Positions 12,843 to 35,659 of a stretch of 40,932 nucleotides of DNA are shown piece by piece. The stretch spans positions 1-40,932 of the IMG/VR virus record IMGVR_UViG_3300043464_000933, one strand, 5' to 3'. The number at the start of each line of letters is the position of its first letter. Position 1 is the stretch's first letter. A program made the translations under genes and the position numbers. The stretch comes from a virus. Below the pieces are notes generated by a model. That model worked only from the letters and a program-made list of their open reading frames with translations, searched no databases and was not told the DNA's origin.

Positions 12843-13067
12843 ATGGAAAAAACCATCAGCCACTTAACCTTGTTTGCGATGTGCAAAAAACACGGGTTTG
12901 CCTACCATAGGGTTAGGCGAAACATTGAACTGCTTGTGTCGCATCTTGACACGGTTACGCAAGATTCAAGGCTCATGATTGAGGACAACGCCAAAAACAA
13001 AAAGCTGTTGACAGCAGCCAATGCACCCAGGTTTTACAAAGATTTAAGAAAAAATGCAACCAATTAA
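12843..13067 (+). CDS. hypothetical protein (74 aa)
   Basis: ATG verified at 12843. First gene of the rightward cassette; it overlaps the start of the next gene. No motif recognised. Confidence 0.45.
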   Translation: MEKTISHLTLFAMCKKHGFAYHRVRRNIELLVSHLDTVTQDSRLMIEDNAKNKKLLTAANAPRFYKDLRKNATN

Positions 13068-13740
13068 AACAACCTATGGCTTTTGGGTAATTGACTCCGA
13101 CCAGTTTATTTCCCGTTGGGCGATTCAGGCAGGCAGGCTTGACCATGACCAAAACCTTCTGCCGCAAATTTTGAAGCACATACCCAAAGGCGGGATTGTA
13201 GTTGACCTTGGAGCCTACATAGGAGACCATACGGTGGCTTACAGCAGGGCTGTAGGCGTTAATGGGCTGGTTTTGGCAGTAGAGCCTAATGATGTGGCTT
13301 TTCGTTGCTTAGAATTGAATTGTGAGGCTTTAGTTTTATCTAATGTTAATTGCCTAAATATGGCAGCTGGCATATCATTGAGCAGCCAAGCAAAAATTGA
13401 TTGGGATGTAAATGTTGACAACCCAGGGGCAAGTAGGATTGTATCTGGTTCAGGGTCAAAAGACCTGTTTTTTTTAAACCAGTATAAAGGCGATGTTGAT
13501 TTTATCAAACTTGACATTGAAGGATGGGAACCTGCCTTTATTTATCAGAATTTTGATTACCTTGCCATGATTCACCCTACCATGGTTATCGAAGTAAACC
13601 ACGGACACCTTGCCCGAGCTGGTTCATCATTTAAGGAACTTTTGGAATTGCTGAATGACTTAGGCTATTCAGTTAGGAACATTTACGAATGGCAGCCGAT
13701 GGAAGGGGATCAGTTTGACATTTTAGCCTATATGCCATGA
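13054..13740 (+). CDS. FkbM-family methyltransferase (228 aa)
   Basis: SAM-binding VVDLGAYIGDHTV, LAVEPN, and the family-typical DFIKLDIEGWE block. Confidence 0.8.
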   Translation: MQPIKTTYGFWVIDSDQFISRWAIQAGRLDHDQNLLPQILKHIPKGGIVVDLGAYIGDHTVAYSRAVGVNGLVLAVEPNDVAFRCLELNCEALVLSNVNCLNMAAGISLSSQAKIDWDVNVDNPGASRIVSGSGSKDLFFLNQYKGDVDFIKLDIEGWEPAFIYQNFDYLAMIHPTMVIEVNHGHLARAGSSFKELLELLNDLGYSVRNIYEWQPMEGDQFDILAYMP

Positions 13741-16140: not shown

Positions 16141-17017
16141 CAACTAATGTGATTGTGATTGGAACCTTAGATTCAAGGCAACCTGAAGCATTTGAAACAA
16201 CAATGTAAACCGTATAAGGTGACAGAGAAGTAGGACACGCACCAGCAGCAGTAAATATTACTGAGCCGTTTTCCAAGTTGTCATCTACAGTTACGCAAGC
16301 TGGCAAAGGTTTGGCGGGGTCTTCCTCCACACTCCACACCAGATTATCAAGCGTCACACCATCGTAAGGACTAACCGCTGTAATTGTTGCAATCTGTACT
16401 GGGTCACCGTTTACCTCCAAAGTAATGGCCTCGCCTGAATAGTCAATATTGCCTTTTTGGATTATTGGGTTAGGGCAAATATTGAAGGTGTTGTCATCGA
16501 AGCAAACCGTTGCAGATGGGATGTATTGAGTAACCCACATTACAATAGCCTGACCCTGAATGTACGTGTTGATGTCCTTCTGGATTACAGGCGCACCCTT
16601 GAAGTTGATTGCATTTCCAGATGCATCCCAAATCACATTGGGAGAAACAAAGTAGAGGTCATATTTATTTGTCTGCCTTCTGAAGTCGTTGTAAAACTGT
16701 ATGTTGTTTACAACGGAAAATTCATCAGCAGTCAAAGTAAATGTATGTGGTCCAGGGTAGCTCTGTTGCCTTCCCCTTCCCAATAGTTCAGCAGTATCTG
16801 GGAGCGGTAGTTCACCATTCACATTTCTTAGAATGATAGCCTCACCGTCTGCCTCTGCCTGAAGGATTGAAGTCATGAATAACTCAACCGTTGTTTTATT
16901 AAGCGTAGTGCTTTTTTTAACAAAGATTAAATCAATGATTCTGCCTTCGTAGTCAACATCGCAGCACTCAATGGAGTAGCATGGATCGATGTTACAATTT
17001 GACGTATTGCAAGCCAT
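16133..17017 (-). CDS. virion structural protein candidate (294 aa)
   Basis: The ATG at 17017 (MACNTSNC...) lies 1 nt after the upstream TGA; the track start at 17068 is a TTG. Cys-rich N-terminus and a beta-rich, Ig-like-looking C-terminus. Confidence 0.45.
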   Translation of the reverse strand: MACNTSNCNIDPCYSIECCDVDYEGRIIDLIFVKKSTTLNKTTVELFMTSILQAEADGEAIILRNVNGELPLPDTAELLGRGRQQSYPGPHTFTLTADEFSVVNNIQFYNDFRRQTNKYDLYFVSPNVIWDASGNAINFKGAPVIQKDINTYIQGQAIVMWVTQYIPSATVCFDDNTFNICPNPIIQKGNIDYSGEAITLEVNGDPVQIATITAVSPYDGVTLDNLVWSVEEDPAKPLPACVTVDDNLENGSVIFTAAGACPTSLSPYTVYIVVSNASGCLESKVPITITLVDA

Positions 17018-17018
17018 T

Positions 17019-19220
17019 TCAGCATTTGAAATTTTGATTTTTGAGAGGCGCAAACCTCTGAGCGACAACTTTGAACTGGCCTATTGTTAACTCGTTATAG
17101 CCTTCCGAACTTGAGTTGTCCAATGGTGTCTCAGTTGTGTATTCCGACACGCAAATATAAATCTTTCCATCAATTATTAGCTTTTCATGTTTAGTTGCAA
17201 AAAACATAGCCTCATGAAACTTGTCAGGCTGCCATGCTGTGTTCACAGTCAATTGCTTGTCTAAGGCTATCTGTCCGAGCCTGTGAACGCCATTGGACTG
17301 CCTGTAACTTGATTCTGTGATTACCTGCTCAGGGTTGCCCATAAACAATTCAAGCCTGTATTTCTGCTTTTGACCTCGCAGATATTCAATACCCCATGCC
17401 CCGTTTTCGTCCGAGAACTCAACCATTTTACTTTCTTCCGACTGGATTTTGAAACTGAAAATATCAGAGATGGCAAGTGGCTCAATCTGGCCAGTAAATT
17501 CATACACCATTAAGCGATAGCAACCTTCCTCAATATCTGCTGGAATATCTACACAGACAAAGGTGTACGGGTTGCAGTCCACGCAATTGCTAACTGATGT
17601 AGTCATCAGGTAGGGCTGCCTGTCAAAGCCTGCTGAAAGCTTCACGCCTTCAAATATCATGGGCTGGAAGGAAGTGATTTGAGGATGGGTTATAAAATCA
17701 ACATAGTCTTTATCAACCTGCCAATTAGGTGTTCCTGTAATCACGCTTCCAGATTCAATTAATAATGCGTCATTATTTATCGCTGCCAAATATTTATAGC
17801 GGTCTGCAACTGGAATTAATACATCCCAAATATCAGACTCGGTTGCTTGCAGAAATGAAACTGGGTAAGCCTGCCTATTAGCTACAATTAGCCCCTGTGT
17901 TGCAGGGATAGAGGTAGCAAGCGTAAATCCAAAAGTGTATTGTTGGCTAACTTCAAAATCAAGGTAGTCTGAATTATTTATTGAATTTGAGGCAAGTATA
18001 ATATTAGTATCAAAAGTATCATATAGATATTGATAGCCAGCTAAAGGATATAACCTGTAAAGCGTAGGGGTTTTTAAGTCATCCTCTAAAAACACAACCC
18101 CCATATTCCACTGATTGAACTCATTAGACAGGTAGCTTATTAGCGACCTTCTTTCTCCATCACTTCCATTTGTCCATGACCAAAATTTAGCAACTGTATT
18201 TAGGCCATAGATAGTTTCGTAAATGCCTGATTCCTGTACGTCAACAAATGAAGAACCAAAATCGGCTATCATAAATGGATAGCCAGTGATAATATCCTCA
18301 TCGCTTGCAAAGTCAGGGCAAATTATTATCTCTATTTCAGGCGTACAGAACACCTCCTCAATATTTTCAAGCCCCAATTCGCTGTAATTGAATTGCACCC
18401 TCCATGTTTCAAACCCGTCCAGGTTTATGTAGCTGGTTAGCGTGATGTCGGTGTTGGAAAAAATCTGGCTAAGTATCAAACCAATTTGGGTCACCTGCGC
18501 CCCTGTTGCTATGTTGCCAAATGGCTGGCCATTAACAGTTGCGAATGCTGTTAAAACAGGCAGGTCTGTAGTTGCCTTGTTGTTGATGAACTTGCGGCTC
18601 AGTTCAGGTCTGGATAATGGGCTAACTACTTCAATTGTAACCACCCTTGACTGGTCAACGGACAAGCCCCCGATATTGGAATTAACAATGTTATTTGATT
18701 CATTGACCAGAGCTACATTGTAATAATAGGTTTCAGCAGGATTCAAGTAAACATTTAAGGACTCTTTTGTTGCCCCTGCGCATATTTCATCCCCCTGCTC
18801 AATTAGCAGCTGGTAGTCTGGATTATATTCGTAATCAGATATGAACGTGTAATCGTAAAATCCTTCTGCCTCAAATCCAGTTTCATCAATTAACTCACTT
18901 ATGAAGTTAGTCAAGGTTGGCTGATGGACGTAGATACGCCATGAGTTAGGGTCTGTAATGCTTAACAGTATGAAATAGTAAGACCAGCCCGTCTTGCCTG
19001 CATTTGGTATAATTTGAAGGCCGTTTACCGTAGTGCTAACTTGCAGCCTGTACCCATTGGCATTGAATAGGCTGGTAGCAAGTAAAAAGTTAAGGCTTGT
19101 AAATTCAGCCGCCAGTGCAACCCTGTTATCAAGGAGGGTTGATATGAACTTGGTGGATGGTCTATTCATACGGCAAATGTAACTAATTAAAATATTTTTC
19201 ACTTTTTGTTTATGTTCCAT
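17019..19220 (-). CDS. large virion structural protein candidate (733 aa)
   Basis: Long beta-rich ORF with no catalytic motif. An alternative start at 19169 (MNRPSTKF) is preceded by TACATTTG-CCGT. Confidence 0.45.
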   Translation of the reverse strand: MEHKQKVKNILISYICRMNRPSTKFISTLLDNRVALAAEFTSLNFLLATSLFNANGYRLQVSTTVNGLQIIPNAGKTGWSYYFILLSITDPNSWRIYVHQPTLTNFISELIDETGFEAEGFYDYTFISDYEYNPDYQLLIEQGDEICAGATKESLNVYLNPAETYYYNVALVNESNNIVNSNIGGLSVDQSRVVTIEVVSPLSRPELSRKFINNKATTDLPVLTAFATVNGQPFGNIATGAQVTQIGLILSQIFSNTDITLTSYINLDGFETWRVQFNYSELGLENIEEVFCTPEIEIIICPDFASDEDIITGYPFMIADFGSSFVDVQESGIYETIYGLNTVAKFWSWTNGSDGERRSLISYLSNEFNQWNMGVVFLEDDLKTPTLYRLYPLAGYQYLYDTFDTNIILASNSINNSDYLDFEVSQQYTFGFTLATSIPATQGLIVANRQAYPVSFLQATESDIWDVLIPVADRYKYLAAINNDALLIESGSVITGTPNWQVDKDYVDFITHPQITSFQPMIFEGVKLSAGFDRQPYLMTTSVSNCVDCNPYTFVCVDIPADIEEGCYRLMVYEFTGQIEPLAISDIFSFKIQSEESKMVEFSDENGAWGIEYLRGQKQKYRLELFMGNPEQVITESSYRQSNGVHRLGQIALDKQLTVNTAWQPDKFHEAMFFATKHEKLIIDGKIYICVSEYTTETPLDNSSSEGYNELTIGQFKVVAQRFAPLKNQNFKC
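19174..19181 (-). promoter_or_regulatory. TACATTTG box 4 nt upstream of the internal ATG at 19169
   Basis: The minus strand reads TACATTTGCCGTATG, 13/15 identical to TACCTTTGCCGCATG at 23070..23084. Confidence 0.3.
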
Positions 19221-23461: not shown

Positions 23462-24196
23462 ATGAATGATATATTTAATACAGATGTTTCTTTGAAAACG
23501 GAAACCCCCGCTTTTGCAAAGCACGTGTTACCAGCAGTGCCTTCATCGGAGGTTTATTTAGAAGATTGTGTAACCGCATTAAAACGCTTTTCTGATAATC
23601 ATTTTGATTTGGCAATAGTTGACCCGCCTTATGGGATTGGTGAAAGTAAATCAAACTTTGAAAGTAGGGGTGTAAGTAGTGAGAAATGGAAACGTGGCAA
23701 GCCAAAGATTTATACTAAAAAAGATTGGGATAATGAAGCTCCAAATTCTGAATACTGGAATGAGCTTTTAAGGGTTTCTAAAAATCAAATTGTTTGGGGT
23801 GCAAATCATTTTATAAGCCGATTGCCTTACGATAGTAGTTGCTGGATAGTTTGGGATAAAGACACATCGGGAGATTATGCTGATTGTGAACTTGCTTGGA
23901 CTTCCTTTAAAACTTCAATAAGAAGAATAAAATTAACGTGGAGCGGTTTTAGAAAATGTGAAGTTGTAGATAGATTCCATCCAACGCAAAAACCTGTAAA
24001 ATTGTATGAGTGGGTTTTAAACAAATACGCTACTGAAGGTGATTTGATTTTAGATACTCATTTAGGAAGTGGAAGCAGTAGGATTGCAGCTTATAAAGGC
24101 GGGTTCAACTTTGTAGGATTTGAAATAGACCAAGAATATTATGAGAAACAAGAAAAGCGTTTTAATGACTTTAAGTCACAACTGCGGTTGTTTTAA
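23462..24196 (+). CDS. orphan DNA methyltransferase (N6_N4_Mtase family, 244 aa)
   Basis: IVDPPYGIGE, WIVWDK, FHPTQKP and DTHLGSGSS motifs. Same architecture as the methylase half of 4161..5387. AT-rich, with no adjacent restriction endonuclease. Confidence 0.85.
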   Translation: MNDIFNTDVSLKTETPAFAKHVLPAVPSSEVYLEDCVTALKRFSDNHFDLAIVDPPYGIGESKSNFESRGVSSEKWKRGKPKIYTKKDWDNEAPNSEYWNELLRVSKNQIVWGANHFISRLPYDSSCWIVWDKDTSGDYADCELAWTSFKTSIRRIKLTWSGFRKCEVVDRFHPTQKPVKLYEWVLNKYATEGDLILDTHLGSGSSRIAAYKGGFNFVGFEIDQEYYEKQEKRFNDFKSQLRLF

Positions 24197-24270: not shown

Positions 24271-27200
24271 CTATTTCTTCACCACCCTGACCCCTCGAAT
24301 TAAATAAACACCCGCAGGCATTTTACTCAGGTCAAATTTAATTCCGTCAATTTCTGTGATTCCATCGGTAGGGTTTGGATAGCCAAATCTGCTAATAGCC
24401 TGCCCACTACACCCTAACAACTCCACCTCACTTACCTGCATGAACGATGTACCTCGAAGCGTTGGGAAGGTCACACGGTATTTCGAGTAGCTAACGGTAT
24501 TGACAAACACTGGCAACACAACCCGCTGCCGTCTGGCTGTGAATAGTGGAACGCTTTCAGTTGCAACTTGAACCCAAACAAAGCCATTCCAGCCTTGCAG
24601 GTTGTAGCTGGCAGGATCACGCTCTGGCGCATCATTGCCAGATGTGATTGATAGTTGAACTACGGGGCTGTGCGTTCTTGGCACGTTGACAATAAAGCCT
24701 GAACCAAGCCCTGTAAAGTTGAGGTACTTAAAGTTCACGCTATTGTCAATAACCCTGTAAGGCTCTTCATTTAGTGGTGGTGGCCTGCTGTCAACTCTGG
24801 AGCCATTGACAATCTCAACCACATCACTTGGCTGTGTTACGTCTACCAATGTGTTGCATGGCTGCGGCTCAACCACTACATTCGGAGCGCAGGCCAATAG
24901 CCTGACTTCAGCTATTTGCATCACACTACAGTTCACACACGACCCACCAACAACAGTAGGGATAATCAAACGATAATGCCTGTAAGCAGTTGAGTTCGTA
25001 AATGCTATTTCCTGAGCTTGGAAGCGAGCTGTAAACAAGGCAACAGCACCAGATGCAATGGCTGTGTAATTCACCCCGTCCAATGAACCTGATAGCTGGT
25101 AAGAACGTGGATCACGTGTTGCTTCGTCATTAGCCGATACCAGCACCAAAGCCCGTACAATTGCCAGCGTGTCTGTGTTAATTGTCAATCCTGAATTTGC
25201 ACCTTGGAAGTTCAAGTACTTGGTGGCTGTGTTGTTGTCGATGGCTTTGGCTACTTCTTCGCCAGCAGGTGAAGTTGTGCCGATGGCCGTTATAGCGTTG
25301 GTAGGCTTTACGATGTTGCGCAAATTGGTAGTGCATGGCTGAACTGGTGGAACAACAATGCTGCAAGTGCGGCTTAAACTATCCGCAGGTGGCGTTCCCA
25401 CACATCCAGCAGGTGAAGCGGTAAAGGTTCGGGTTTGCACACCTGACACGCAGGCTGTCCATGCTGAGTAGGTGAATGAACAAGCAGGAGGTTGAACGCC
25501 ACCCGTTGATAGATTTATGTTGTCCAGGTAGATGTAATTGCCATAAGCAGAACGGCTAACAAATACAAACTGAACTGATGAAGCCGATGGAAGTCCACTA
25601 AGGCTTACCGTTTCCGTTCTCCATTGAGATGCTGTCGGAGTATATGAACTAACAAGGGATGGTGCAGTTGCAAGTTCAGCCCCGCCCTTACGATACACAA
25701 CTTGATAGCTTGTACCGCAATTGAGCAAGGCTAAAATGGTAAGGGTGTCAGCCCTTCCTGTGTATTGAGCATATGCCACATCAAATCTGAGTTGTGAAGC
25801 GGCCACGCCACCTAATGAAATTACAGGTGTGAACAAACTATCAAACCTTCCTGTTGAATTAGGCGAAGGGTAGTTCATCGCTCTTATGCTTTTTGAACTC
25901 GTGCCAAAGCCACCAGCAAGACTTGTTACCGACCAAGTGTTGTCTCCATTCGGATTGATAACTTCCCAGCCTGTTGGTATTGCAGAAGCAGCTTCGAAGT
26001 TTTGGCTAAATGGTGCATTGGTGTTTCCATTCAACCTCACCACGGCATCCTTGCCTGTATGTGTGCAACCGTTTTTAGTCACAGCAACATTGTAGGTTCC
26101 AACAGTAGATGCGCTGGCATTGGGTACGCTTATGCTTTGATTGGTAGAGGTAAAGCCATTTGCCCCAGTCCATTGGTAGGTAGCACCTGTTATACCTGTC
26201 ACGCCTAAATTGATTGTGCCGCCAGCGCAAACCCTTCTGGTTCCTGTTATGCTGTACTCTTCAATCTGATAGCCAGTCAGACAGGTAGCCGTGCTTACCC
26301 TTGACCGCATTAATGTAGATGGCAGCACACCAAACCCTTGTGTGAAGTCTATGCTTCCATTGGTATGGCAATAACTCATGATAGTGCCAGACTGCGGTAT
26401 TCTTGCACCCGTGTAGCATGTAGGTGAACCAAATGGCTCTACAGTTCCGCAAAAATCAATTGGTCTGCGTGTTCCATCAGGCCACAACCATCCACACCAA
26501 TGGGTATGGTTTGAACCTAAGTTGTGACCAATCTCATGGGCAATCACATTAACAGTCCACGAATAAACAGGGAATTGAGAATAATTCAATGCCGCATTAC
26601 TGTATGCAATATTGGTGGCACTTGTTGAGCTGCATAGTGAATTGAGGTAAGCCAAGCCGCCTAAGTTCCCAACTTTCAATGAAATCAGATGTGCGATGTT
26701 GCCATTATAAGTAATGCTTTGAATCCTTGTTCTGAACGCAGTAAGTGCAGCATCGGATGAAGTTCCAGGGTATGGGTCAAGTGTTGTCCAGATATGCAAT
26801 TGGCTCAGATTAACTTGTATCAAATCCCTTGCATACAGCAGCTTTATAATATTAAACACACCATTCACATAGTTGGTAGTGGTTGTGATGTTGCTACCAT
26901 TCTGAATGAAACCCTGATTGTCAATTTCAAAGTAGTTGTTTACAATTCTGCAACCAGCGGATTTGTTGTCATACATTTGCTCTTCCTGCTTGGAATCACC
27001 ATCAGGTGTGTGGCAGTTAAATGGATTCTTTTCTGGCAAACTCATATCGTTGTACACTACATGTAGAGCATTGGTTTTGCCAATGAACTTTCTATCCATC
27101 ACCCCAATGTTGTAGTTTCCGCTTGGAGTAGACACCATACCAAATACTTCGTTTTCAAAAACGCTGATGGCAGCCAGATGGGTAGGCTTACCCGCTACAT

Positions 27201-27516
27201 AGCCTTTGAAGTAAAACCCTTTAGCTGGTTGGCTTGATTTGCCATCCGATGTGGTAACAATAAAATCAGGTGAATGAGGTTCCCACAATTCCAATTCAAG
27301 TTGGCCTATGCCTGCTATGTTTAGCGAAGCCTTTTGGCCTTTGTAGGATTTCAGCAACTCATAACCTTCTTTGTTGAAGTTGAAGTATTGAGCCTGACTT
27401 TTCCAGCCTGCATCTTTGATGCTTTTGTTGGGTTGGAAGATCGGGTTGAGGTTGAAAACTTGGGCTTGTGCCATCGTAGACAGCACAAGCAGGAAGGTGA
27501 TGAGTGTGTGTGTCAT
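24271..27516 (-). CDS. secreted multidomain reprolysin-like zinc metalloprotease with T9SS-type C-terminal sorting signal (1081 aa)
   Basis: Signal peptide MTHTLITFLLVLSTMAQA-Q. HEIGHNLGSNH at 26524..26538. An Ig-like repeat (ATYQWTGANGFTSTNQ...GTYNVAVTKNGC) and a PTGWEVINPNGDNTW module. Two ~150-aa discoidin-like repeats (TKYLNF / FKYLNF ... RDP.SY ... FTAR). C-terminus: YPNPTDGITEIDGIKFDLSKMPAGVYLIRGVRVVKK. Confidence 0.8.
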   Translation of the reverse strand: MTHTLITFLLVLSTMAQAQVFNLNPIFQPNKSIKDAGWKSQAQYFNFNKEGYELLKSYKGQKASLNIAGIGQLELELWEPHSPDFIVTTSDGKSSQPAKGFYFKGYVAGKPTHLAAISVFENEVFGMVSTPSGNYNIGVMDRKFIGKTNALHVVYNDMSLPEKNPFNCHTPDGDSKQEEQMYDNKSAGCRIVNNYFEIDNQGFIQNGSNITTTTNYVNGVFNIIKLLYARDLIQVNLSQLHIWTTLDPYPGTSSDAALTAFRTRIQSITYNGNIAHLISLKVGNLGGLAYLNSLCSSTSATNIAYSNAALNYSQFPVYSWTVNVIAHEIGHNLGSNHTHWCGWLWPDGTRRPIDFCGTVEPFGSPTCYTGARIPQSGTIMSYCHTNGSIDFTQGFGVLPSTLMRSRVSTATCLTGYQIEEYSITGTRRVCAGGTINLGVTGITGATYQWTGANGFTSTNQSISVPNASASTVGTYNVAVTKNGCTHTGKDAVVRLNGNTNAPFSQNFEAASAIPTGWEVINPNGDNTWSVTSLAGGFGTSSKSIRAMNYPSPNSTGRFDSLFTPVISLGGVAASQLRFDVAYAQYTGRADTLTILALLNCGTSYQVVYRKGGAELATAPSLVSSYTPTASQWRTETVSLSGLPSASSVQFVFVSRSAYGNYIYLDNINLSTGGVQPPACSFTYSAWTACVSGVQTRTFTASPAGCVGTPPADSLSRTCSIVVPPVQPCTTNLRNIVKPTNAITAIGTTSPAGEEVAKAIDNNTATKYLNFQGANSGLTINTDTLAIVRALVLVSANDEATRDPRSYQLSGSLDGVNYTAIASGAVALFTARFQAQEIAFTNSTAYRHYRLIIPTVVGGSCVNCSVMQIAEVRLLACAPNVVVEPQPCNTLVDVTQPSDVVEIVNGSRVDSRPPPLNEEPYRVIDNSVNFKYLNFTGLGSGFIVNVPRTHSPVVQLSITSGNDAPERDPASYNLQGWNGFVWVQVATESVPLFTARRQRVVLPVFVNTVSYSKYRVTFPTLRGTSFMQVSEVELLGCSGQAISRFGYPNPTDGITEIDGIKFDLSKMPAGVYLIRGVRVVKK

Positions 27517-27523
27517 GTGTTTG

Positions 27524-27973
27524 TTAATAAAATGTTTTAGCGGTAGCTAACCACCAGTTTGGAAGATTGAAAATATAGGCAATGCTTTGAAAGCAGTTAG
27601 TACTTTTTTCTCCAGAGTAAATTTTTAGCAAAGTAGTCCAGTATTTTGCATCGTAACGATTGCCAAGAATAGTGTAAAACCTGCCTTCATCGAAGCCGCC
27701 CATGTTAATTACTGAAAAAGACCGTTGCATAGTTTTTTGTTCTGCTATCCATTGGTCTAATGTTCTTGTAATATGAAATCCAGAAATAGTGGATTCACAA
27801 ATATACAAGCGTTTATTTGACTCAAACGAGCGAACAAGTTGACAATGGTTGTATTCAGTATTCATTCCTTTTCTTAATAACCACCAAAAAAACTGATTCA
27901 AAATGTTTCCTTTTGTGTTGCGAATAAGAAGGATAGATTTATCTTTAATTTTAGTTAAATCGTCCTGCTGCAT
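27524..27973 (-). CDS. possible permuted papain-like (NlpC/P60-related) hydrolase (149 aa)
   Basis: His-then-Cys order: YNHCQLV...ICEST...STNCFQSIAYIF. The track start at 28015 is a TTG; the ATG is at 27973. Weak, by-eye assignment. Confidence 0.3.
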   Translation of the reverse strand: MQQDDLTKIKDKSILLIRNTKGNILNQFFWWLLRKGMNTEYNHCQLVRSFESNKRLYICESTISGFHITRTLDQWIAEQKTMQRSFSVINMGGFDEGRFYTILGNRYDAKYWTTLLKIYSGEKSTNCFQSIAYIFNLPNWWLATAKTFY

Positions 27974-28322
27974 CTGCCCAAAGAACTTTTTGCTCAAAAA
28001 TATCCCAGTGAACAATAGGCTGTGTTATCAGCGATACATAGTAGTCGAACTCTGTAATAACAGCGTCTTCACTATCTGCATCTACAATGTTGCCTTCTGC
28101 ATCAAGCCACGTGCTTCTGTCAGCAACAAGGCTTACCCATTTTGTGCCAAGCGGGTGTTTGGTAAGCACATCATCGACCATGTGCCACCTTTCTATGCGC
28201 ACACGTAGTTTGACGTGATGCCCGTATTCATTGTCGTTGTCGTAATCCAGCCCGCTATAGTAAGCGTACCTCTCGAAGCCTGTGTCGATTGTGTCGTTTG
28301 AAATTTTTACTGAGTTTTCCAT
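27951..28322 (-). CDS. hypothetical protein (123 aa), possible fibre accessory protein
   Basis: ATG verified at 28322, 1 nt (position 28323) after the upstream stop codon. Acidic. The call rests on context only. Confidence 0.4.
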   Translation of the reverse strand: MENSVKISNDTIDTGFERYAYYSGLDYDNDNEYGHHVKLRVRIERWHMVDDVLTKHPLGTKWVSLVADRSTWLDAEGNIVDADSEDAVITEFDYYVSLITQPIVHWDIFEQKVLWADAAGRFN

Positions 28323-28323
28323 G

Positions 28324-29178
28324 TTAAATTGCTCTTCCGAGACTTGTTTGAAATGCTTGAACTAAATTGTAAAATACTAAAGATTCTCTCGCAGTCAATG
28401 CGCTTCCAAGTGATGCAAAACATATACCTGCATTAGAAGGTATTGGATTTATGCTGCGGGAAAACAATAAAACAGCACTTGTAGGAACTGTTAAAGATCC
28501 ACCAGCATTAGACGCTACCGATATTCCGTTTCTGTAAAGTATTGTACTATTTGAAGCTGGACGAACCCCACAATAAAAGCCTGCTGTTGCAACACCTGAA
28601 CTTAATAGGTCTGTTGCATTTCTCGCATTTATTGTTGCACCTAAAAGCCCAGTTCCAAACCTTGCTATTTGAAAAGCACTACTTGTAACAAGATTTCCAC
28701 TGACCCCCATAACAGCAGTAGAATTGACTGTTGGTGCTACATTGATATACGCAGAAAGATGCACTGAACTTGTATTCGCCTGATTGATACTTGGCGTGTA
28801 AAATGTATTTCCAGCATTTCCTGCTGCACCAGTACTTTTACCTCCATCCTCTGTAAATGTTAATCCCGCTCCTGTCCACGATATTCTAAATGCTGCATCG
28901 GTATCTATTACATTTTTAAGGTTCCATTTGTGAGTTATGGCTGTTGTTCCGCCTAAAAACGGATACATAGCATCCATTTTATCCCAAAGTCCGTTGGCTA
29001 TTAAACTGTAAACAAAGTTGTTGCAGGCATCAATTCTGGCTCTTGAAGCAGCATATCCATCTGCACTCATTGCATTTGCCAACGCCATTACATTCGGATG
29101 TATAGATTCAGGAAACAAACCAAATGTAATATCACCAATAACTTTAACACCGATGCCTTGTATGCTTGTTAATCCCAT
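28324..29178 (-). CDS. tail fibre / receptor-binding protein candidate (284 aa)
   Basis: Beta-rich composition rich in G, S, T, A and N. ATG overlaps the stop of the upstream fibre gene (TAATG). The N-terminus GIGVKVIGDITF resembles the GIGYW.IED.FIV motif. Confidence 0.5.
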   Translation of the reverse strand: MGLTSIQGIGVKVIGDITFGLFPESIHPNVMALANAMSADGYAASRARIDACNNFVYSLIANGLWDKMDAMYPFLGGTTAITHKWNLKNVIDTDAAFRISWTGAGLTFTEDGGKSTGAAGNAGNTFYTPSINQANTSSVHLSAYINVAPTVNSTAVMGVSGNLVTSSAFQIARFGTGLLGATINARNATDLLSSGVATAGFYCGVRPASNSTILYRNGISVASNAGGSLTVPTSAVLLFSRSINPIPSNAGICFASLGSALTARESLVFYNLVQAFQTSLGRAI

Positions 29179-30776
29179 TAGTTTAAAAAAGTTGTCGTTA
29201 CAATTGAAGCAGTGATTGAATTGTCGGCATCTGCTGTAACCCAGTCAGCTTGCAAATCAATGGCAAGTGTGCCAGTGGTATCAATTGAGCCAGAAGTAGC
29301 ACTCACCTGAAAAAAGTTTAACAAATCAGTTCCACTATGATTCAATCTGCCTATGCCCATAAACTGCAAAGTTCCTGTTGCTCCTGCTGTTCTGCAAGTG
29401 AGAGTAAATTCAGCATCGAAAAACACATTGGTAAGTCCACCGTTGTGAGTAAACGTAATTGTACCAACTGCAACACCTCCAATAGTTAGCTTTAATGCAC
29501 AATCTTGACTACCAGTGTCTTGGCTGTAAGTTCCCGACACATAGATTTTTATTGTTTTACCTACTCCAAAAAAATTGGCAGGCAGTGTTGCGCTACCAGT
29601 TAGTGTTCCTAAAAGTGTTGTTGAAGTTGCTGTATTTACTACAGTTACGCTTGAGGTTTGAGCGAATACCCCTAAAGCTGTTAAGTCCGCACTTTTAGTT
29701 AAATTTCCTGATGTGTCAGCCACCAGTAGGCCAGAACTACTGCCCGTTGCAAAGTCAGGGTTTCGTTCTGCGGTAATTATTTTGGTATAACCAGAATCCT
29801 TGCGCATTGTAAGGCTGGTGTTGCTTGACACCGTGTCGCACCAAATGCTACCGTTTGTCGTTCCTGTTATTGTTACACCACTTGTTGGTGTAAGTACCAT
29901 CAAAGGAACTGAGCCTGTGCTTCCAGATATAGCAATTGCAGCTGAAAATGTTTTTATTCCTGCAAATGTTTGCGCCGCTGTCGTTACTACGCCACCAAAA
30001 GAAGCGTCCGCAGGTTGAAGGTTTAGGGTTGTGCCTCCTGTAATTGTTGCACCATTGGCATTTGGGGTAGCTCCAATTGCAGCCATTGTTGTTACGCCTC
30101 CTCCTCCTCCTCCTGCCAACGCCTGACCATTTGCCCGCAAATACCCTGTACACCTCCAGTTGCCACTTCCTTCGCTAACGAATACAGCCACATCACCCGC
30201 AGCAGTTGTTATGTTAGCAGTCGTTGGCAGAATAAGAGAAGTAGCGTTGTGGGTAAGAATTAAAGCACCCGAGAACCTAACAATTCTTACAGCTCCTGCC
30301 TGTGCAGTTCCAAGTGCTGTTATGGTTGTAGTTCCTGTAACTACTACGTAGTTGCCCGTTGCGGCTGCTATATTAGTTGTTCCTGCGCTGGCAATGTCTG
30401 TACCTTTTGCATCATTGACAGTTCCAGTCAATGAACCGCCTGCCAATGGCAGAAATGAACCACTACCCCCCTGAGCGGTAAAGGTGTTGCCTGTTATGTC
30501 ATATTCGCCAAATTCGCCAGTAGTCAGGTTAATAGCTGCGTCTGATATAGCATTAGCAGCCGTTGGAAACACTATTAGAACGTTGGAACTTGGGCCGCCC
30601 GTAAGTTGGTAAATTGTGTTTGTGTCCAAATTGCTGGCTGCAATCAGGGCTTGAATCTGCGCCCGTGTTTGGGTGACACCGAACTTACAAAGGTTTATCC
30701 AGTTGGCAAATTGTGCCTCTGTTGGTGTGTCGCCTGTGTTATAGGCGGCTAAAACTGCATTTCTTGTTGTGCTCAT
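29178..30776 (-). CDS. tail fibre protein candidate (532 aa)
   Basis: N-terminal TGDTPTEAQFANWI motif, followed by long G/T/A/S-rich repetitive beta-type sequence and a Gly6 hinge. Confidence 0.55.
   Translation of the reverse strand: MSTTRNAVLAAYNTGDTPTEAQFANWINLCKFGVTQTRAQIQALIAASNLDTNTIYQLTGGPSSNVLIVFPTAANAISDAAINLTTGEFGEYDITGNTFTAQGGSGSFLPLAGGSLTGTVNDAKGTDIASAGTTNIAAATGNYVVVTGTTTITALGTAQAGAVRIVRFSGALILTHNATSLILPTTANITTAAGDVAVFVSEGSGNWRCTGYLRANGQALAGGGGGGVTTMAAIGATPNANGATITGGTTLNLQPADASFGGVVTTAAQTFAGIKTFSAAIAISGSTGSVPLMVLTPTSGVTITGTTNGSIWCDTVSSNTSLTMRKDSGYTKIITAERNPDFATGSSSGLLVADTSGNLTKSADLTALGVFAQTSSVTVVNTATSTTLLGTLTGSATLPANFFGVGKTIKIYVSGTYSQDTGSQDCALKLTIGGVAVGTITFTHNGGLTNVFFDAEFTLTCRTAGATGTLQFMGIGRLNHSGTDLLNFFQVSATSGSIDTTGTLAIDLQADWVTADADNSITASIVTTTFLN
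29184..29190 (-). other. T TTT TTA slippery heptamer 6 nt before the stop of the 532-aa fibre gene
   Basis: The minus strand reads ACT TTT TTA AAC TAA TG. The heptamer is in X XXY YYZ phase, and the -1 frame runs straight into the 284-aa ORF. Confidence 0.35.
30097..30114. repeat. (CCT)6 trinucleotide repeat encoding the Gly6 hinge of the fibre
   Basis: Six perfect CCT units on the plus strand, which are GGA/AGG units on the coding strand. Confidence 0.9.
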
Positions 30777-30777
30777 C

Positions 30778-32514
30778 TTATGTTACGATAAAAGTGTCTT
30801 CAATAACCCAATAGCCGATGCCCACCAGCAATGGTGGTTGACTTGGGAAATCACCTCCGTCAAGGCAATCCCACGTCCTGCATGATCGGCATAGTTTTTT
30901 TCCCGCTACGCTAACGCTCTGGGCTGCTATTAAATTGTCATCAATCACCCAAAGGTTAGATAGGTCATGTAAGCCTATTGCCGTTGGTTGAACTGTTAAG
31001 TCCTGCCCTCCTGTTCCGTTTTGGTAGGTTAATAGTCGGGTAAAGGATATTGTGTTTAGGTCATCAGAATAGTCAACCTGATAGGATGCTATTTCTCCTG
31101 ATGTTAGCCTTGCAATTGCGATTATCTTATCGTCTAACAATTGAAGTTCAAGCACGTCAAAGTTAGCCGAAACATCAGATTCTGCTGTGAGAAACGTACT
31201 GTCATCAATACGTCTGGCAAAGCACACCAAGCCCAAGTTTGAGCCTACGAAGGCAATTATACCCACAGCGTCCTGAACGTGGCTTGTAAGGCTTGTGAAG
31301 GCCGTGAATGATAGGTCGGTTAGGGTGTTGGTTAATATTCCAGTAGATTGAAAGTAAGCCAGCCTAACATCGCCCGTTCCGTTCCGTTTAACAAACATAA
31401 ACGACTTACCAATGGAAACTGGATAAACTGCAAGCAATTGGTCTAAAACCTGTTGAACCGCTAAAAGTTGTTCAAATGTTTTTCCGTTTGTTATTACTGC
31501 TACACTTGTTAAGGTTGCAGGAGAAACTTGGTTGTATCTTGTTGTTGCAAACCTATATCCTCCTAAAGGCTGCAAACTATAAATATAATCTGGAGATGTA
31601 AATAAAGCAAATACACTTATCCTTTCTCCGTCAACGAACACAGCTGGCTCGTTTGTATTAACAGTCTGCAACCAGGCAAGACTGAAATCAGTTCCTCCAA
31701 CTTGCTTAACCTCTCGCCCTGTTATTGGTTTGTTGCCAATCAGGCACGCATCAATTAACGTTTCGTTGTCAGGGTCAATGATTGTTTGCAGAATGTCTGG
31801 CGTTAGTTTCCCTGGTTGCCAGATACCAATCTGAACATCGTTAAGTGGGTAGATGGTTTGCCCGTTCCTGCTTTTAGCCTTGAATCCTGCAATAGAAGTA
31901 ATAAATGGGTTTTCGTAAATAGAAGGAAACCTTCTAAATGATACCTCACTAACCAGTTGGCCAATGTCATCAAAGGTCAGCAGTATTTGATTCAGGCTTG
32001 AAATCTTTGGTAAAGCCTGAATAGTATTTTGGCTATAAGTAATATCCCAAAAGATTGTGTCAGGCTGCTCACCTGCAAGTAGTTGGTTCAATAACTCAAC
32101 CTCAAGTGGGCTAACTTCTTGGCACTCTATTGGCAAATCGCCAAAGCCCCCAATGATGTCAAGTGAAAAGGAATCAACAACGCCTGAACTCAATTCAAAG
32201 CTGTACATCCAGAACCTATTAACTCCATCATGGTAGTCCGATGTTATCTTCAGGTAGGCACTTGACCCTTCAGCGTTTACAACCTCAACCCTCGCTACGT
32301 AGCAGGACGGGTTGGCCGTGTTGTAGTTATTGATGATTGTCTGTATTGCTGACTGTACGCTGGCAAAGCTTGTAACACCTACCACAATGGCCGATATGAC
32401 GGCCTCGGCTGCTGTTGCCGCTGCTTGCAGGGCTACATCACACCCGTCTGTTTCAGGGTCGATGGCCGTTAGCTTAGTGGTGCAATCAGGATAAAAATCT
32501 GCTAAGAATTTCAT
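30778..32514 (-). CDS. tail-module structural protein (578 aa) ending in GIGYWVIEDTFIVT
   Basis: Tightly packed between two other large tail-module ORFs. No enzymatic motif. The C-terminal 14 aa match the post-stop extension of the capsid gene. Confidence 0.5.
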   Translation of the reverse strand: MKFLADFYPDCTTKLTAIDPETDGCDVALQAAATAAEAVISAIVVGVTSFASVQSAIQTIINNYNTANPSCYVARVEVVNAEGSSAYLKITSDYHDGVNRFWMYSFELSSGVVDSFSLDIIGGFGDLPIECQEVSPLEVELLNQLLAGEQPDTIFWDITYSQNTIQALPKISSLNQILLTFDDIGQLVSEVSFRRFPSIYENPFITSIAGFKAKSRNGQTIYPLNDVQIGIWQPGKLTPDILQTIIDPDNETLIDACLIGNKPITGREVKQVGGTDFSLAWLQTVNTNEPAVFVDGERISVFALFTSPDYIYSLQPLGGYRFATTRYNQVSPATLTSVAVITNGKTFEQLLAVQQVLDQLLAVYPVSIGKSFMFVKRNGTGDVRLAYFQSTGILTNTLTDLSFTAFTSLTSHVQDAVGIIAFVGSNLGLVCFARRIDDSTFLTAESDVSANFDVLELQLLDDKIIAIARLTSGEIASYQVDYSDDLNTISFTRLLTYQNGTGGQDLTVQPTAIGLHDLSNLWVIDDNLIAAQSVSVAGKKLCRSCRTWDCLDGGDFPSQPPLLVGIGYWVIEDTFIVT

Positions 32515-34793
32515 TGCTTCAAAATTAGTGTAAATTCGGTGAAACCTGTATTCCCTGGTTCATTTATTGCCGTCTGAATTATCCCTAAAAATGTCCTGCC
32601 TTGGCTGGTGAATTGAATAGTTTGACCTGGTATGTTTCTTAGCTTGATAAATTCGCAAAGTAATTGCGGAATCGTGAATGTAGTTTGTTCAGGAAAGTAA
32701 GTGGCCTGCCTGATGGGTTCAGAAACATTGGCCTCGTATAAGTCTGCATTCTCGGATATAGGGATGCCAAAGACTTCTGGTACTTGACCTATGGTGGCCT
32801 GACTGGTTAAGGTGCTGTTGTAGGTTCCTGTGCTGAACCTGAAGAAATCATTGCCTGTACCCTTAAGGCTGCCTGCAATCTGACACCAGTTCCAGATTAA
32901 CATTCTGGCAGGGGAAACACGAAGGTTGTAAGCCAAATCCCTGAATGGAAGGTCGCCTGTTACTTCAAACCACCTTTGGCCAGTTGCCTCAACCAAGGCC
33001 AATTCAGAGCAAGTTCCAATTGGCCTTGTGTAACCTGGTGCTGCTGTTGGGTCAGGCTGCCACGGGTCGGTTTCTACTTGTTCCTCCGTATCTATTGCAA
33101 CCGCTTCAGCATTTACGCAGATAATGAATATATTGTTGTCGGTTTTGTAGTCACTTGTTGAATCAAAGAATTGCAAACGTCTGGCAACCTCAATTGAATA
33201 ACCTCCTGCTGTATAGCCTGTGACCAAATCAAGTACGTTGGCTACCGTTGCACCAGGAATAATAAACGTTCTTTTCGTGTTGAACTCATATACCCCATTG
33301 TAGTTTTCAGGCAATGATTGGTCGGTGTAGCCAATCTCAACGCTTGAATATATTTTGTCAATTATTGGCTGCTTTGTGAACGTGTCTACATTGGTGAACG
33401 TTGTCTTTGCTGTTGAGCCGTAAAAGTAGCTAAGGTGTTCAACCCTCACCTTAACAGAAACTCCATCCACCACCTCAATCTGATAGCCCAAACCAAAGAT
33501 TTTAGATAAAGCCTCAAAGCAAGCCTGAAAAGTATCATTAATCGGAAAAACTTGTCCGTTGTCATCAACTGCATTTCGCAAGGCAAGCCCGTTGGTTAAG
33601 AACGTAAGCGAGCCAGCCCCATATTCAGGGTATGGGTAATTAGTTAGGGGGCTGCCAAAGAAGTTTGAAACCAGTATATTTTTTTGGCCGCAAATAGATT
33701 CAAGGATTCGGTTGAGGTATTCGTAAGTGTATTGACCGTAACACGTTGACGGTGGTTCCTGCTTAGTTGCTGAAGCATTTAGGTAAGTTCCTGAAAGTAG
33801 ATTAACTTCGTTGAAATAGGTTTGGCTTAAGGCAAGCCCACGAACCACATAGCGAACAAAATAACCAAGTGCAAAGCCAGGTTCAATAGTGAAGGTTTCT
33901 GAGTAAGTAAATTGAACTACATTAACACCGCCTGAGGTATATTGAATTTCATCTAACAATACAGCCGACAATGTTCCTGATGGGTTAACTACACACCTAT
34001 ACAATTCCGCCCAACGACCACCGATTGCTTCAACAATATCTCCGCAAACCCCTGCAATATTCCTGATTTGAAACAATGCTGTACTATCAATAAATAGTTC
34101 AATGTCAAGATCGGCTGGATTGCTGGAAATGTTGACAAACAAGGCTTGTGAAATATCTTGCCTGACTGAAATAAAGGAGGATAATTCACGGGCTGTTATG
34201 CCTATGGTTGAAAGGTCGTTTTGTTGCGGAGCTAAAACAAAGTTTACCCCATAGAACCCATCATAAGTGTAACCACATTGGCCTAATGTGGTTGGGTCGC
34301 CTGTGATTAATAATTCAACATTGTTATTGATTAGGTAGTTTGCCCGTGCTTGTAATGGCTGACTATGCAGGTCAAACAAATCATTACTAAGTGGCGTAAG
34401 TTCCACCCCCTCCGCATTCGTTTCGTTCCGCAGGTTTATCTTGGTTCCCTTATTGGCTGTGAACTTCTCGGCTATGCCTGAATCCATGATGCCTATAATT
34501 ACATCTTGACCCTCTTCCTGATAAACCTTAAAGTTTAGCACACCAGAATAGCGGTCTATTGCCTGTTGACAGGAGCCGTCCTTGAACCTGACAATATCAA
34601 TTGGAACCAAGGCATTGACAAACCTTTGGTTATATGCCTGCCTGATTATGTCGGCTGCTTTATTTTGGAACGTTACTGTGTCGGAGAAGACAAAGCTAAA
34701 GCCAGCATCAGGCTTGCGCTCAATAGTGAACTGGACGGCATCCCACCCAATAGGTTCGTTTACCTCAATGCCTGAAATGAAGAACTTCCACAT
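32511..34793 (-). CDS. large tail/baseplate structural protein candidate (760 aa)
   Basis: Large beta-rich ORF downstream of the tape-measure region, with ATGA overlap onto the next gene. The call rests on context only. Confidence 0.45.
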   Translation of the reverse strand: MWKFFISGIEVNEPIGWDAVQFTIERKPDAGFSFVFSDTVTFQNKAADIIRQAYNQRFVNALVPIDIVRFKDGSCQQAIDRYSGVLNFKVYQEEGQDVIIGIMDSGIAEKFTANKGTKINLRNETNAEGVELTPLSNDLFDLHSQPLQARANYLINNNVELLITGDPTTLGQCGYTYDGFYGVNFVLAPQQNDLSTIGITARELSSFISVRQDISQALFVNISSNPADLDIELFIDSTALFQIRNIAGVCGDIVEAIGGRWAELYRCVVNPSGTLSAVLLDEIQYTSGGVNVVQFTYSETFTIEPGFALGYFVRYVVRGLALSQTYFNEVNLLSGTYLNASATKQEPPSTCYGQYTYEYLNRILESICGQKNILVSNFFGSPLTNYPYPEYGAGSLTFLTNGLALRNAVDDNGQVFPINDTFQACFEALSKIFGLGYQIEVVDGVSVKVRVEHLSYFYGSTAKTTFTNVDTFTKQPIIDKIYSSVEIGYTDQSLPENYNGVYEFNTKRTFIIPGATVANVLDLVTGYTAGGYSIEVARRLQFFDSTSDYKTDNNIFIICVNAEAVAIDTEEQVETDPWQPDPTAAPGYTRPIGTCSELALVEATGQRWFEVTGDLPFRDLAYNLRVSPARMLIWNWCQIAGSLKGTGNDFFRFSTGTYNSTLTSQATIGQVPEVFGIPISENADLYEANVSEPIRQATYFPEQTTFTIPQLLCEFIKLRNIPGQTIQFTSQGRTFLGIIQTAINEPGNTGFTEFTLILKQ

Positions 34794-34804
34794 TAGGTGC
34801 GAAT

Positions 34805-35659
34805 TTAACGGATTATTTCTTCATAAGCCTCCTTACTTATTGGAAGTAGCCTATGTCTGCAATTATAGCCCCCTAAATAGGTTTTAATGGTTGCCTTGTT
34901 GGTTGCTGGTATTTTGCCATCCCATGTTAAGGCAGCCCAACTTTGAACCTCTTTAGTGGTGAATGCCTTGCCCACCCTTGCCTTGCAGAACGGCCTTGAA
35001 TCTTTGATAGTAGTGCCTGAATAGATCCAGTAGTCAACATCAATATCCGATGTCAGGGTTTCCATGTATGCTCTGTTGAACTGCTCAATTGAATCGTTAC
35101 TAACCTGCTTAACGTAGCGGCTCAACCTTGCCTCCCGTTTGGCATCACCCTTAATGGCCTGCCTTAGTAGCTGGTTCAGGCTTGCCCTGTTGCCCTTTCC
35201 CGTCTGCCAGGTCTTGATGATGTTCTGAATCTGAGCCGTAAAGTTGGCATCCACACCTGCACCTGTCATCAGTTCCAATGTTGTTGCCGTTGCCTGTTGG
35301 GTTAGGGCTTCGCCTAATATCGGGTTGTTCTGAAGGTCAACAAAGGCCGCTGTCAGGTAGTTCCTGGATATTTCGGCCACCTGAATAAACGAGGTTGAAA
35401 CATCAAACAACATGAGTTGGTAATCCCTGTTTAGGGTTACCGCCTCGGTTATCTGGTTGCGTAGGGCTGTTACCTGCTGGTTAGCCAGAATGATGTCAAC
35501 CGCTGAACTGGATGGGTTGATTGTTGCTGTTAGTTCCAACACCTGCTCATACACCGATTCAAGCACTGTGGGCATGCCCTTCTTGATAAGCTTCTGGAGT
35601 TCTTCCATAGCTTCATCAAGTTCCTCTGTGACCCTGTCGATGTAGCGGGGAGTTGGCAT
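34805..35659 (-). CDS. head-morphogenesis protein (Mu F / SPP1 gp7-like, 284 aa)
   Basis: The C-terminal block DSRPFCKARVGKAFTTKEV...YLGGYNCRHRLLPIS matches the family's signature region. Confidence 0.55.
   Translation of the reverse strand: MPTPRYIDRVTEELDEAMEELQKLIKKGMPTVLESVYEQVLELTATINPSSSAVDIILANQQVTALRNQITEAVTLNRDYQLMLFDVSTSFIQVAEISRNYLTAAFVDLQNNPILGEALTQQATATTLELMTGAGVDANFTAQIQNIIKTWQTGKGNRASLNQLLRQAIKGDAKREARLSRYVKQVSNDSIEQFNRAYMETLTSDIDVDYWIYSGTTIKDSRPFCKARVGKAFTTKEVQSWAALTWDGKIPATNKATIKTYLGGYNCRHRLLPISKEAYEEIIR

Follow-up and report, generated by a model that had tools for sequence, protein, structure and literature searches.

The stretch of DNA analysed here, the 40,932 nucleotides of the IMG/VR virus record IMGVR_UViG_3300043464_000933 (called the window from here on, always at its full length), carries on its minus strand a gene with the layout of a secreted zinc metalloprotease, whose C-terminal tail is homologous to the C-terminal domain (CTD) that sorts the cargo proteins of type IX secretion systems (T9SS), at half the normal length. 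This 41-kb stretch is a nearly complete tailed-phage genome, with the large terminase encoded at 2488–3816. Near-identical copies of the protease gene (90–96% identity) occur in four other metagenome assemblies, together with one orthologue of 36% overall identity (P0005), found in a related phage whose tail proteins are 46–60% identical to those of the window. What is new is a conserved half-size tail, apparently phage-restricted, on two unrelated cargos; what is already known is that phages can encode T9SS cargo and that this protease family is itself common T9SS cargo in Bacteroidota.

An earlier note on this DNA, made from the letters alone, had read the gene product as a Sec-exported, reprolysin-like protease with a propeptide-sized region, an Ig-like repeat, a 'PTGW-type module' and two tandem discoidin-like repeats ahead of its C-terminus, and each of these parts was recovered (Table 1). 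The leader combines a hydrophobic core of 11–13 residues with an A-x-A site and a Gln at +1, as judged by a heuristic check, and these features are conserved in P0173, from an unrelated phage, and in P0005, which retains the leader in the form MTHTLTCLLLLLTQVATA followed by Gln. For the leader of the window protein the ratio of non-synonymous to synonymous substitution rates (dN/dS) is 0.15, computed, as are all the rates given below, between the window gene and that of the related phage L001, the two proteins being 90% identical. A hydrophobic region and then Gln were also observed in 90 of the 116 homologues with an intact N-terminus, and a Gln exposed by leader cleavage is the 'Q-rule' of the Bacteroidota (PMC5837995). 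Within the pro-region, 95 of 120 homologues show [FGH]xC at the position of the NPFNC motif, whose cysteine may work as a cysteine switch coordinating the zinc.

All five reprolysin-type Pfam models (Reprolysin_5, _3, _2, _4 and Reprolysin) score above their cutoffs over residues 198–386, with 61.7 bits against a cutoff of 27 for Reprolysin_5 (E 1.5e-16), 56.8 against 22.4 for Reprolysin_3 and 39.4 against 20.8 for Reprolysin. The zinc motif HEIGHNLGSNH (aa 327–337, nt 26506–26538) and the Met-turn IMSY (aa 379–382) are intact, both being present in 118 of 120 homologues, and the closest solved structures to the catalytic part are adamalysin and acutolysin (PDB, E 5e-8 to 1e-6). From its sequence, the enzyme is very probably an active protease. 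Downstream of the catalytic domain, residues 428–504 (26005–26235, minus strand), largely the Ig-like repeat, are the best of five stretches matching the Aureispira grappling-hook protein GhpA (PDB 9flp), with a whole-chain E of 1.6e-44. The 'PTGW-type module' turned out to be a choice-of-anchor J domain, which matches NF038128 at 59.1 bits against a cutoff of 30 (E 5.7e-16) over positions 2–161 of the 162-position model; this region also shows a weak MAM match and the lowest dN/dS of the gene (0.037), and the Cys-rich linker behind it evolves quicker than the folded domains. Repeat 1 of the discoidin-like pair passes the F5_F8_type_C model (E 5.2e-7, 30.3 bits against a cutoff of 28.2) and matches PDB 7nsn (E 1.4e-14). 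Between the two repeats identity is 37% (E 5e-30), and the AlphaFold2 (AF2) model of repeat 2, with a predicted local distance difference test score (pLDDT) of 78–89, retrieves with Foldseek the CBM32 modules of NanJ, ZmpB and a GH92 mannosidase (E 1e-7 to 1e-4). Both repeats are predicted to have a CBM32-like lectin fold and to bind sugars. Identity to P0005 is about 51% across the 254-residue C-terminal BLAST segment that includes repeat 2, and 21 cysteines are found in the mature part of the protein.

The discoidin-like module (24409–25311, minus strand) recurs at 37–47% identity in proteins of about 220 residues (P0122–P0171, one of them named from Phycisphaerales), which consist of a signal peptide, the module and a PEP-CTERM tag, such tags standing directly after the module in other phyla. 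In this sense it acts like a 'choice-of-anchor' domain, and no dedicated family model captures it.

Table 1. Protease gene, its parts and the tail genes of the same operon (nucleotide positions in the window)
Feature	Position	Strand	Basis or remark
Whole protease gene	24271–27516	-	1081 aa, ATG start; pre-pro metalloprotease with lectin modules and mini-tail
Sec/signal peptidase I-type signal peptide, aa 1–19	27460–27516	-	MTHTLITFLLVLSTMAQA followed by Q; heuristic sequence check
Pro-region, aa 20–190	26947–27459	-	aligns with pro-regions of bacterial homologues; about 170 residues
NPFNC motif, aa 164–168	27013–27027	-	conserved; candidate cysteine switch
Reprolysin/adamalysin-like (M12B-type) catalytic domain	26257–26946	-	five Pfam reprolysin-type models
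Ig-like repeat, aa 421–502	26011–26256	-	weak Pfam Ig_2, E 0.007
Choice-of-anchor J domain, aa 503–668, MAM-like beta-sandwich	25513–26010	-	NCBIfam NF038128
Cys-rich linker, aa 669–735	25312–25512	-	read from sequence; dN/dS 0.24
Discoidin/CBM32-like repeat 1	24862–25311	-	Pfam F5_F8_type_C
Discoidin/CBM32-like repeat 2	24409–24861	-	homology to repeat 1; AF2 and Foldseek
Short, fast-evolving linker before the tail, about aa 1037–1046	24379–24408	-	dN about 0.5 over aa 1036–1046, window against L001
35-residue mini-tail PNPTDGITEIDGIKFDLSKMPAGVYLIRGVRVVKK	24274–24378	-	T9SS type A CTD without the beta3-loop-beta4 hairpin and the beta6-beta7 tip
Upstream genes of the same operon	27524–30776	-	tail fibre, then three small open reading frames (ORFs); synteny with L001 and L002
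Three small ORFs	28324–29178, 27951–28322, 27524–28015	-	between fibre and protease; no counterpart in L001 and L002
Tail fibre	29178–30776	-	conserved N-terminus, variable C-terminus; segment common with annotated Rhizobium phage tail-fibre proteins
Tail module proper	30778–38170	-	tape measure, then 284-aa, 760-aa virion structural and 578-aa proteins
Virion structural protein, 760 aa	32511–34793	-	PHROG virion structural protein, E 5e-54
Tape measure	35660–38170	-	PHROG tape-measure, E 3e-68

The C-terminal tail and type A sorting domains

From the PNP of the YPNP sequence (aa 1046–1049) up to the protein's C-terminus there are 35 residues in every phage copy and 60–80 in 88 bacterial homologues. 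Well over 100 Bacteroidota proteins are related to the protease region at 30–42% identity, and nearly all of them end in a PF18962 domain, whose position is exactly the one that the mini-tail holds in the phage protein. The tail keeps the PNP start, a PAGVYLI segment (the PxGxY motif) and a terminal RVVKK; PNP, PxGxY and the terminal Lys are invariant or conservatively substituted in all six aligned phage-family sequences. As a DNA pattern the tail is unique in the window, and it was matched in none of 100 shuffles.

A HMMER search with a profile of the phage tails through 1.84 billion cluster representatives retrieved the full-length CTDs of P0184 (E 3.3e-4) and P0186 (E 6.2e-4), which themselves pass the TIGR04183 model at 37.9 and 29.7 bits, respectively. 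The CTD of P0186 starts with YPNPTNGITTIKG and ends with IDLGHLAVGVYLIYIDGEIVKIIKR, P0184 being alike, and both ends are common to the tail. In this alignment the two bacterial domains match the tail on either side of a single gap of 27–31 residues, so that the tail corresponds to strands beta1-beta2 and beta5-beta6-beta7 of a type A CTD, with the tip of the final hairpin missing too. What is lost in the gap is the beta3-loop-beta4 hairpin, within which the RgpB segment IFDMNGRRVATA lies. The same collinear alignment with its single gap ruled out another way of fitting the tail to the fold, as a beta3-beta4-beta6-beta7 sheet with ITEIDG as the beta3-beta4 loop. When aligned with hhalign to 12 CTDs of bacterial homologues, the phage tails gave a probability of 82% over 16 columns. 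The claim of the earlier note that the sorting domain is short and lacks its central strands is thus borne out; its wider claim of a T9SS cargo C-terminus holds for the motifs and the homology, and does not for the two curated models, which the tail fails.

Distribution and maintenance of the short tail

Among the 1.84 billion cluster representatives the complete tail was found in two places only, the phage protease family and P0173, a protein of 256 residues with a classical leader (ending LVYG before the Q) and the tail PNPTRGMVDVNGIDYDLTNMPSGVYFIDGIGVVKH, of the same length and in the same register. P0173 is encoded in an unrelated phage contig with a homing endonuclease, a DNA polymerase exonuclease subunit, an exonuclease and a crAss ring-type virion protein, and its relatives P0191 and P0192 carry full PF18962 CTDs. 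Its gene directly follows a large fibre-like ORF of 1031 residues, for which a weak precomputed PTL_trimer match was the only hit, Pfam and tblastn searches returning nothing; since the fibre identity of this neighbour rests on that match, a location next to a fibre gene is firm for the window lineage only.

Two DNA patterns of the mini-tail, run against one genome each of 185,579 bacterial and archaeal species, gave zero matches, and in IMG/VR neither a protein-guided scan nor the two pattern scans found any. A pattern scan of JGI metagenomes returned one further copy of the L002-type gene (L002 being another related phage) and nothing else. These patterns are strict, with fixed spacing and 18–25 specified bases, and the zero counts therefore measure the rarity of this exact format, not the absence of every short tail. 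No further ORF with a CTD-like tail was found in the window, L001, L002, L003 or L006. Separately, a differently shortened CTD-like tail, GIYNLQGVRMSGDFSRLPAGIYIVDGKKVVKK, was observed in P0190, encoded in an ordinary bacterial chromosomal context (L009 6001–6282, GCA_000614065.1, contig BAKG01000009.1), where it follows a choice-of-anchor J/Cleaved_Adhesin domain, keeps beta3-beta4 and beta6-beta7 and gives no match to TIGR04183. Because of this different design, short tails of other kinds may be under-annotated in bacteria.

The substitution rates vary along the end of the protease. Whereas the whole gene has a dN/dS of 0.095 and the tail one of 0.14, the last 22 codons show 0.06, with 7 synonymous against 2 non-synonymous changes, and the 11 residues ahead of PNP evolve very fast (dN about 0.5). 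A conserved tag on a flexible linker is the pattern expected to give these rates. The distant orthologue P0005 has PKD and fn3 domains in place of the first discoidin repeat, and it keeps the leader, the last discoidin repeat and the tail, here PNPTDRFTTINGVKFDLSRLPAGVHVIKGVRVIKR; the tail alignment has 26 invariant columns out of 50. Purifying selection, retention in an orthologue of 36% identity, the presence of a second cargo and the lack of a bacterial match together indicate that the tail is a maintained, apparently phage-restricted variant and not a broken CTD. Moreover, divergence of the protease gene has kept pace with that of the tail genes in the two phages, which argues that its capture is old.

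Gene neighbourhood and host

The order tape measure, 284-aa protein, 760-aa protein, 578-aa protein, fibre and protease is common to the window, L001 and L002. In the last two, fibre and protease genes adjoin each other, and three extra small ORFs separate them in the window, where the ATG of the protease lies 7 nt past the stop of the ORF upstream. The earlier note had placed the gene last in the tail operon and had proposed to look for it at the end of the fibre module in related phages. In the window it is indeed the final gene of the minus-strand tail operon, since the gene downstream is convergent, and in L001 and L002 it directly follows the fibre gene; more same-strand genes come after it in L002, however, and the last position is therefore not a conserved property. 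A promoter and terminator scan around the gene did no better than on shuffled sequences; it does not cover Bacteroidota promoters and its result was not used. As for the fibre, its N-terminal 106 residues or so are kept across the related phages (94% and 75% identity) and the remainder is unrelated in each (window 29178–30776, L001 5908–7152, L002 7893–10004), which is the pattern of receptor-binding module swapping.

Other proteins encoded in the window include a DnaB-type helicase, a replication initiator, a Mu Gam-like protein and three DNA methyltransferases, and no integrase was seen among the tested ORFs. A tblastn search of GenBank phages with the protease found no match, and searches with the terminase and structural proteins reached remote phage relatives only, so that there is no close cultured relative and no host assignment was possible from them. 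The homologues and the Q-rule leader suggest that this is probably a phage of Bacteroidota, and a Saprospiria-like host is hinted at by the GhpA match in combination with the many homologues from Saprospiraceae.

Some other genes deserve a mention. In the small ORF next to the protease (27524–28015, minus strand), a His...Cys pattern (YNHCQLV ... STNCFQS) recalls permuted NlpC/P60-type hydrolases; as a lysin of this type it found no support in Pfam, PHROGs or PDB, and an internal ATG (MQQDDL...) is its likelier start, because the listed TTG overlaps the preceding ORF. A 127-aa ORF (39725–40108, minus strand) starts with MKGLTIAMLLIASMSVSANGQ, which looks like a Q-rule signal peptide, and is overlapped by a 102-aa ORF (40029–40337, minus strand) with one strong transmembrane segment; the pair, at the tail block's head, are candidates for a second exported protein and a holin-like one. 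The methyltransferase genes (4161–5387, minus strand; 13054–13740 and 23462–24196, plus strand), of which one also encodes a fused ParB-like nuclease domain, probably serve anti-restriction. Finally, the ORF at 14413–16143 (minus strand) encodes a 576-aa protein with a weak, below-cutoff match to a DnaJ-type CXXCXGXG zinc finger (E 6e-5), and the block 14413–19220 to which it belongs sits immediately downstream of the protease in L002, which implies a genome rearrangement between the window and L002.

Export, function and competing explanations

The interpretation that we favour is that the gene encodes an extracytoplasmic phage effector, a Sec-exported zymogen that would act on glycosylated proteins of the host surface and for which T9SS export is plausible; taken as a whole, we would put its chances at about even. 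That the product is an exported, non-structural effector is highly probable, given its Q-rule leader, a pro-region of bacterial type, the 21 cysteines, lectin modules associated elsewhere with PEP-CTERM tags and a position-equivalent CTD in well over 100 homologues. Passage of the outer membrane by T9SS through the mini-tail, on the other hand, could just as well hold as fail. The 7-nt gap and the common strand suggest that the gene would be transcribed late, together with the tail-fibre genes. Sec would then carry the pre-pro-enzyme across the inner membrane, where cleavage by signal peptidase I after AQA would expose the Gln, as happens in the majority of secreted Bacteroidota proteins. In the periplasm the protein would fold and form its disulfides, with latency maintained by the pro-region, probably via Cys168 of NPFNC, and the retained beta1-beta2 and beta5-beta6-beta7 segments of the tail could plausibly engage PorV/SprA for delivery to the cell surface or the medium. 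Once outside, the CBM32-like modules and the choice-of-anchor J domain would bind some glycan-bearing surface structure to be cut by the metzincin. For the phage the most likely benefit would be that surface glycoproteins of infected cells and debris are removed or remodelled, with receptor destruction, fewer progeny lost to re-adsorption, superinfection exclusion or a looser matrix as possible payoffs.

Several observations weigh against this proposal. Neither Pfam nor NCBIfam gave a T9SS CTD model match to the whole 1081-aa protein at E<=1, a result that the earlier note had itself listed as contrary to its claim. The isolated tail reaches 13.4–16.1 bits on TIGR04183 (cutoff 23) and 15.5–18.4 bits on PF18962 (cutoff 27), in matches that span just 16–19 model positions around PAGVYLI (39–57 of 72 and 46–61 of 75, respectively), and control full-length CTDs scanned likewise pass at 29.7–49.2 bits. 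The AF2 model of the tail has four short strands with a pLDDT of just 54–69. With sub-cutoff scores and without the seven-stranded Ig-like sandwich of some 70–100 residues, the tail shares homology with the type A CTD, yet it is not a member of the family by score or by fold. In Porphyromonas gingivalis, deletion of the beta3-beta4 hairpin or mutation of its Gly blocks the secretion of RgpB (PMC11285876), and cryo-electron microscopy revealed a folded seven-strand CTD sandwich that buries about 40% of its surface in SprA/PorV (PMC10994853); half a sandwich may not be bound in the same way. No sequenced bacterial species was found to use the tail format, which is odd for a fully competent signal. 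That the host has a T9SS is suggested by the homologues and the Q-rule leader only, and the proposed substrate and phage benefit are read from the architecture. Furthermore, window and L001 have proteases of 90% identity despite their differing fibre C-termini; the enzyme is therefore not tracking receptor specificity, and such a steady protease beside changing fibres speaks against a tight coupling between them.

Much of the above would suit an enzyme exported by Sec and independent of T9SS, which would remain periplasmic or at the outer membrane until freed by lysis, while its conserved tail does some other job, either attaching it to PorV or a different outer-membrane protein with no transport, or providing stability or oligomerisation by strand exchange. 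We regard this as rather unlikely. In its favour, the sub-threshold tail, its low-confidence model, the loss of a hairpin essential to RgpB and the lack of the format in bacterial genomes all agree with it, and RgpB CTDs are able to dimerise through a swap of the last strand (PMC4804311). It has more difficulty with the fact that each conserved position of the tail is a canonical CTD motif, and that full CTDs stand at the same place in the homologues of both cargos. The last 22 residues were moreover reported to be enough for the export of HBP35-GFP in P. gingivalis (Shoji et al. 2011, as summarised in PMC5445135 and PMC4804311). A further option, which we consider clearly unlikely, takes the tail as a phage-specific re-engineering of the T9SS signal and as something more than a short version of it. 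The tail could be the smallest natural signal that SprA/PorV still accepts, kept for economy, or it could attach to PorV or the translocon and then be neither released normally nor cleaved by PorU. The latter would leave the protease stationed at T9SS exit sites, or jam the system itself, and nascent surface adhesins used as phage receptors would be cleaved or never displayed; if true, this would amount to a device for superinfection exclusion or against re-adsorption.

It is highly unlikely that the protein is a virion-associated tail enzyme, a depolymerase-like structural component that degrades the surface layer at adsorption. The gene does lie in the tail module after the fibre gene in three related phages (directly so but for the small ORFs of the window), phage fibres commonly bear lectin and Ig-like domains, and the protein matches the PHROG 'tail protein' phrog_17517 (E 4.5e-7). 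This match, however, is confined to the discoidin domain, and the N-terminus is a Sec leader followed by a pro-region shared with bacterial secreted homologues, with no attachment domain, whereas the true fibre has its 106-residue N-terminal anchor. Sec export is incompatible with tail assembly in the cytoplasm, and both the 21 cysteines and the zymogen design suit an extracytoplasmic protein; the earlier note had likewise discounted a structural role. Barely credible is the idea of a functionless, decaying CTD remnant on a recently captured host gene. Half the normal length and the missed family thresholds could be taken as signs of decay, but the excess of synonymous changes in the last 22 codons, the invariant columns among orthologues of 36% overall identity, the tail of identical length and register on an unrelated cargo of an unrelated phage and the old capture of the gene all go against it.

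Should the favoured reading of a T9SS-exported effector be correct, several issues would be touched. On what the T9SS translocon needs at a minimum, the findings point in different directions: a 22-residue fragment sufficed in one P. gingivalis fusion, yet it is the full sandwich that is bound and loop deletions block export. The interest of the finding lies in offering a natural test case for this minimal signal and in the phage use of T9SS: a natural, selected tail of 35 residues with a defined missing hairpin would be a ready test object, and possibly a compact secretion tag for the engineering of Bacteroidota. The protease would also join a very short list of phage-encoded T9SS-type cargo, it would indicate that genes of this sort can belong stably to a phage lineage, linked to its fibre, and not be transient morons, and a lectin-guided surface protease would let phages of gliding or T9SS-bearing bacteria remodel the surface that carries their own receptors.

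The closest known counterparts are M12-family T9SS cargos of Bacteroidota, such as the Chryseobacterium 'M12 family metallo-peptidase' P0084 and the Saprospiraceae 'T9SS type A sorting domain-containing protein' entries P0033 and P0046. They have in common with the phage protein the Q at +1, the conserved Cys of the pro-region, the HExxHxxGxxH motif with its Met-turn, beta-sandwich or lectin modules that vary, and a sorting tag at the C-terminus; they differ in having full CTDs (49 bits for P0084 and 34 bits for P0006 on TIGR04183), in not being phage-encoded and in lacking its set of a choice-of-anchor J domain with two CBM32-like repeats. A different likeness is that to Llp of phage T5 and Cor of phi80 and N15, small receptor-binding lipoproteins that are encoded beside receptor-binding genes and protect progeny or block superinfection. 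These are also signal-peptide-bearing and non-structural, with a gene next to that of the fibre or receptor-binding protein, as in the proposed receptor-related role of the protease, which in contrast is a large secreted enzyme showing no co-variation with the fibre C-terminus. Clostridium perfringens ZmpB (PDB 7jnd), of an M60-like family, is another zinc protease joined to CBM32/F5-8 type C lectin modules, which steer it to glycosylated substrates; it differs in protease family, phylum and secretion route, and it is not phage-borne. The 22-residue signal of HBP35 resembles the phage tail in its beta6-beta7 hairpin with PxGxY and a terminal Lys-containing motif; it is, however, an engineered truncation in a single species, whereas the phage tail is natural, selected and keeps beta1-beta2 and beta5.

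Regarding phage-encoded cargo, an endoglucanase, a GH39 enzyme and a PA14 protein with T9SS type A sorting domains were described in Cryophage by Bellas et al. (2020), who called it a unique occurrence (PMC7468147). These and the cargos of huge phages are similarly Sec- and CTD-tagged proteins that presumably use the T9SS of the host, encoded by variable or flexible genes. None of the Cryophage cargos is a protease, and what sets the protease of the window apart is its halved signal and a gene fixed beside that of the fibre. Secreted Q-rule proteins are also known in P. gingivalis phages (PMC10367356). Among huge uncultured phages, Q-rule leaders and full-length CTD-like C-termini were observed in proteins encoded at L007 1952–3061 (LR756500.1, 462 kb) and L008 2054–3043 (LR756504.1, 636 kb), and the former passes TIGR04183 with 32.7 bits; they add to the instances of T9SS cargo encoded by phages.

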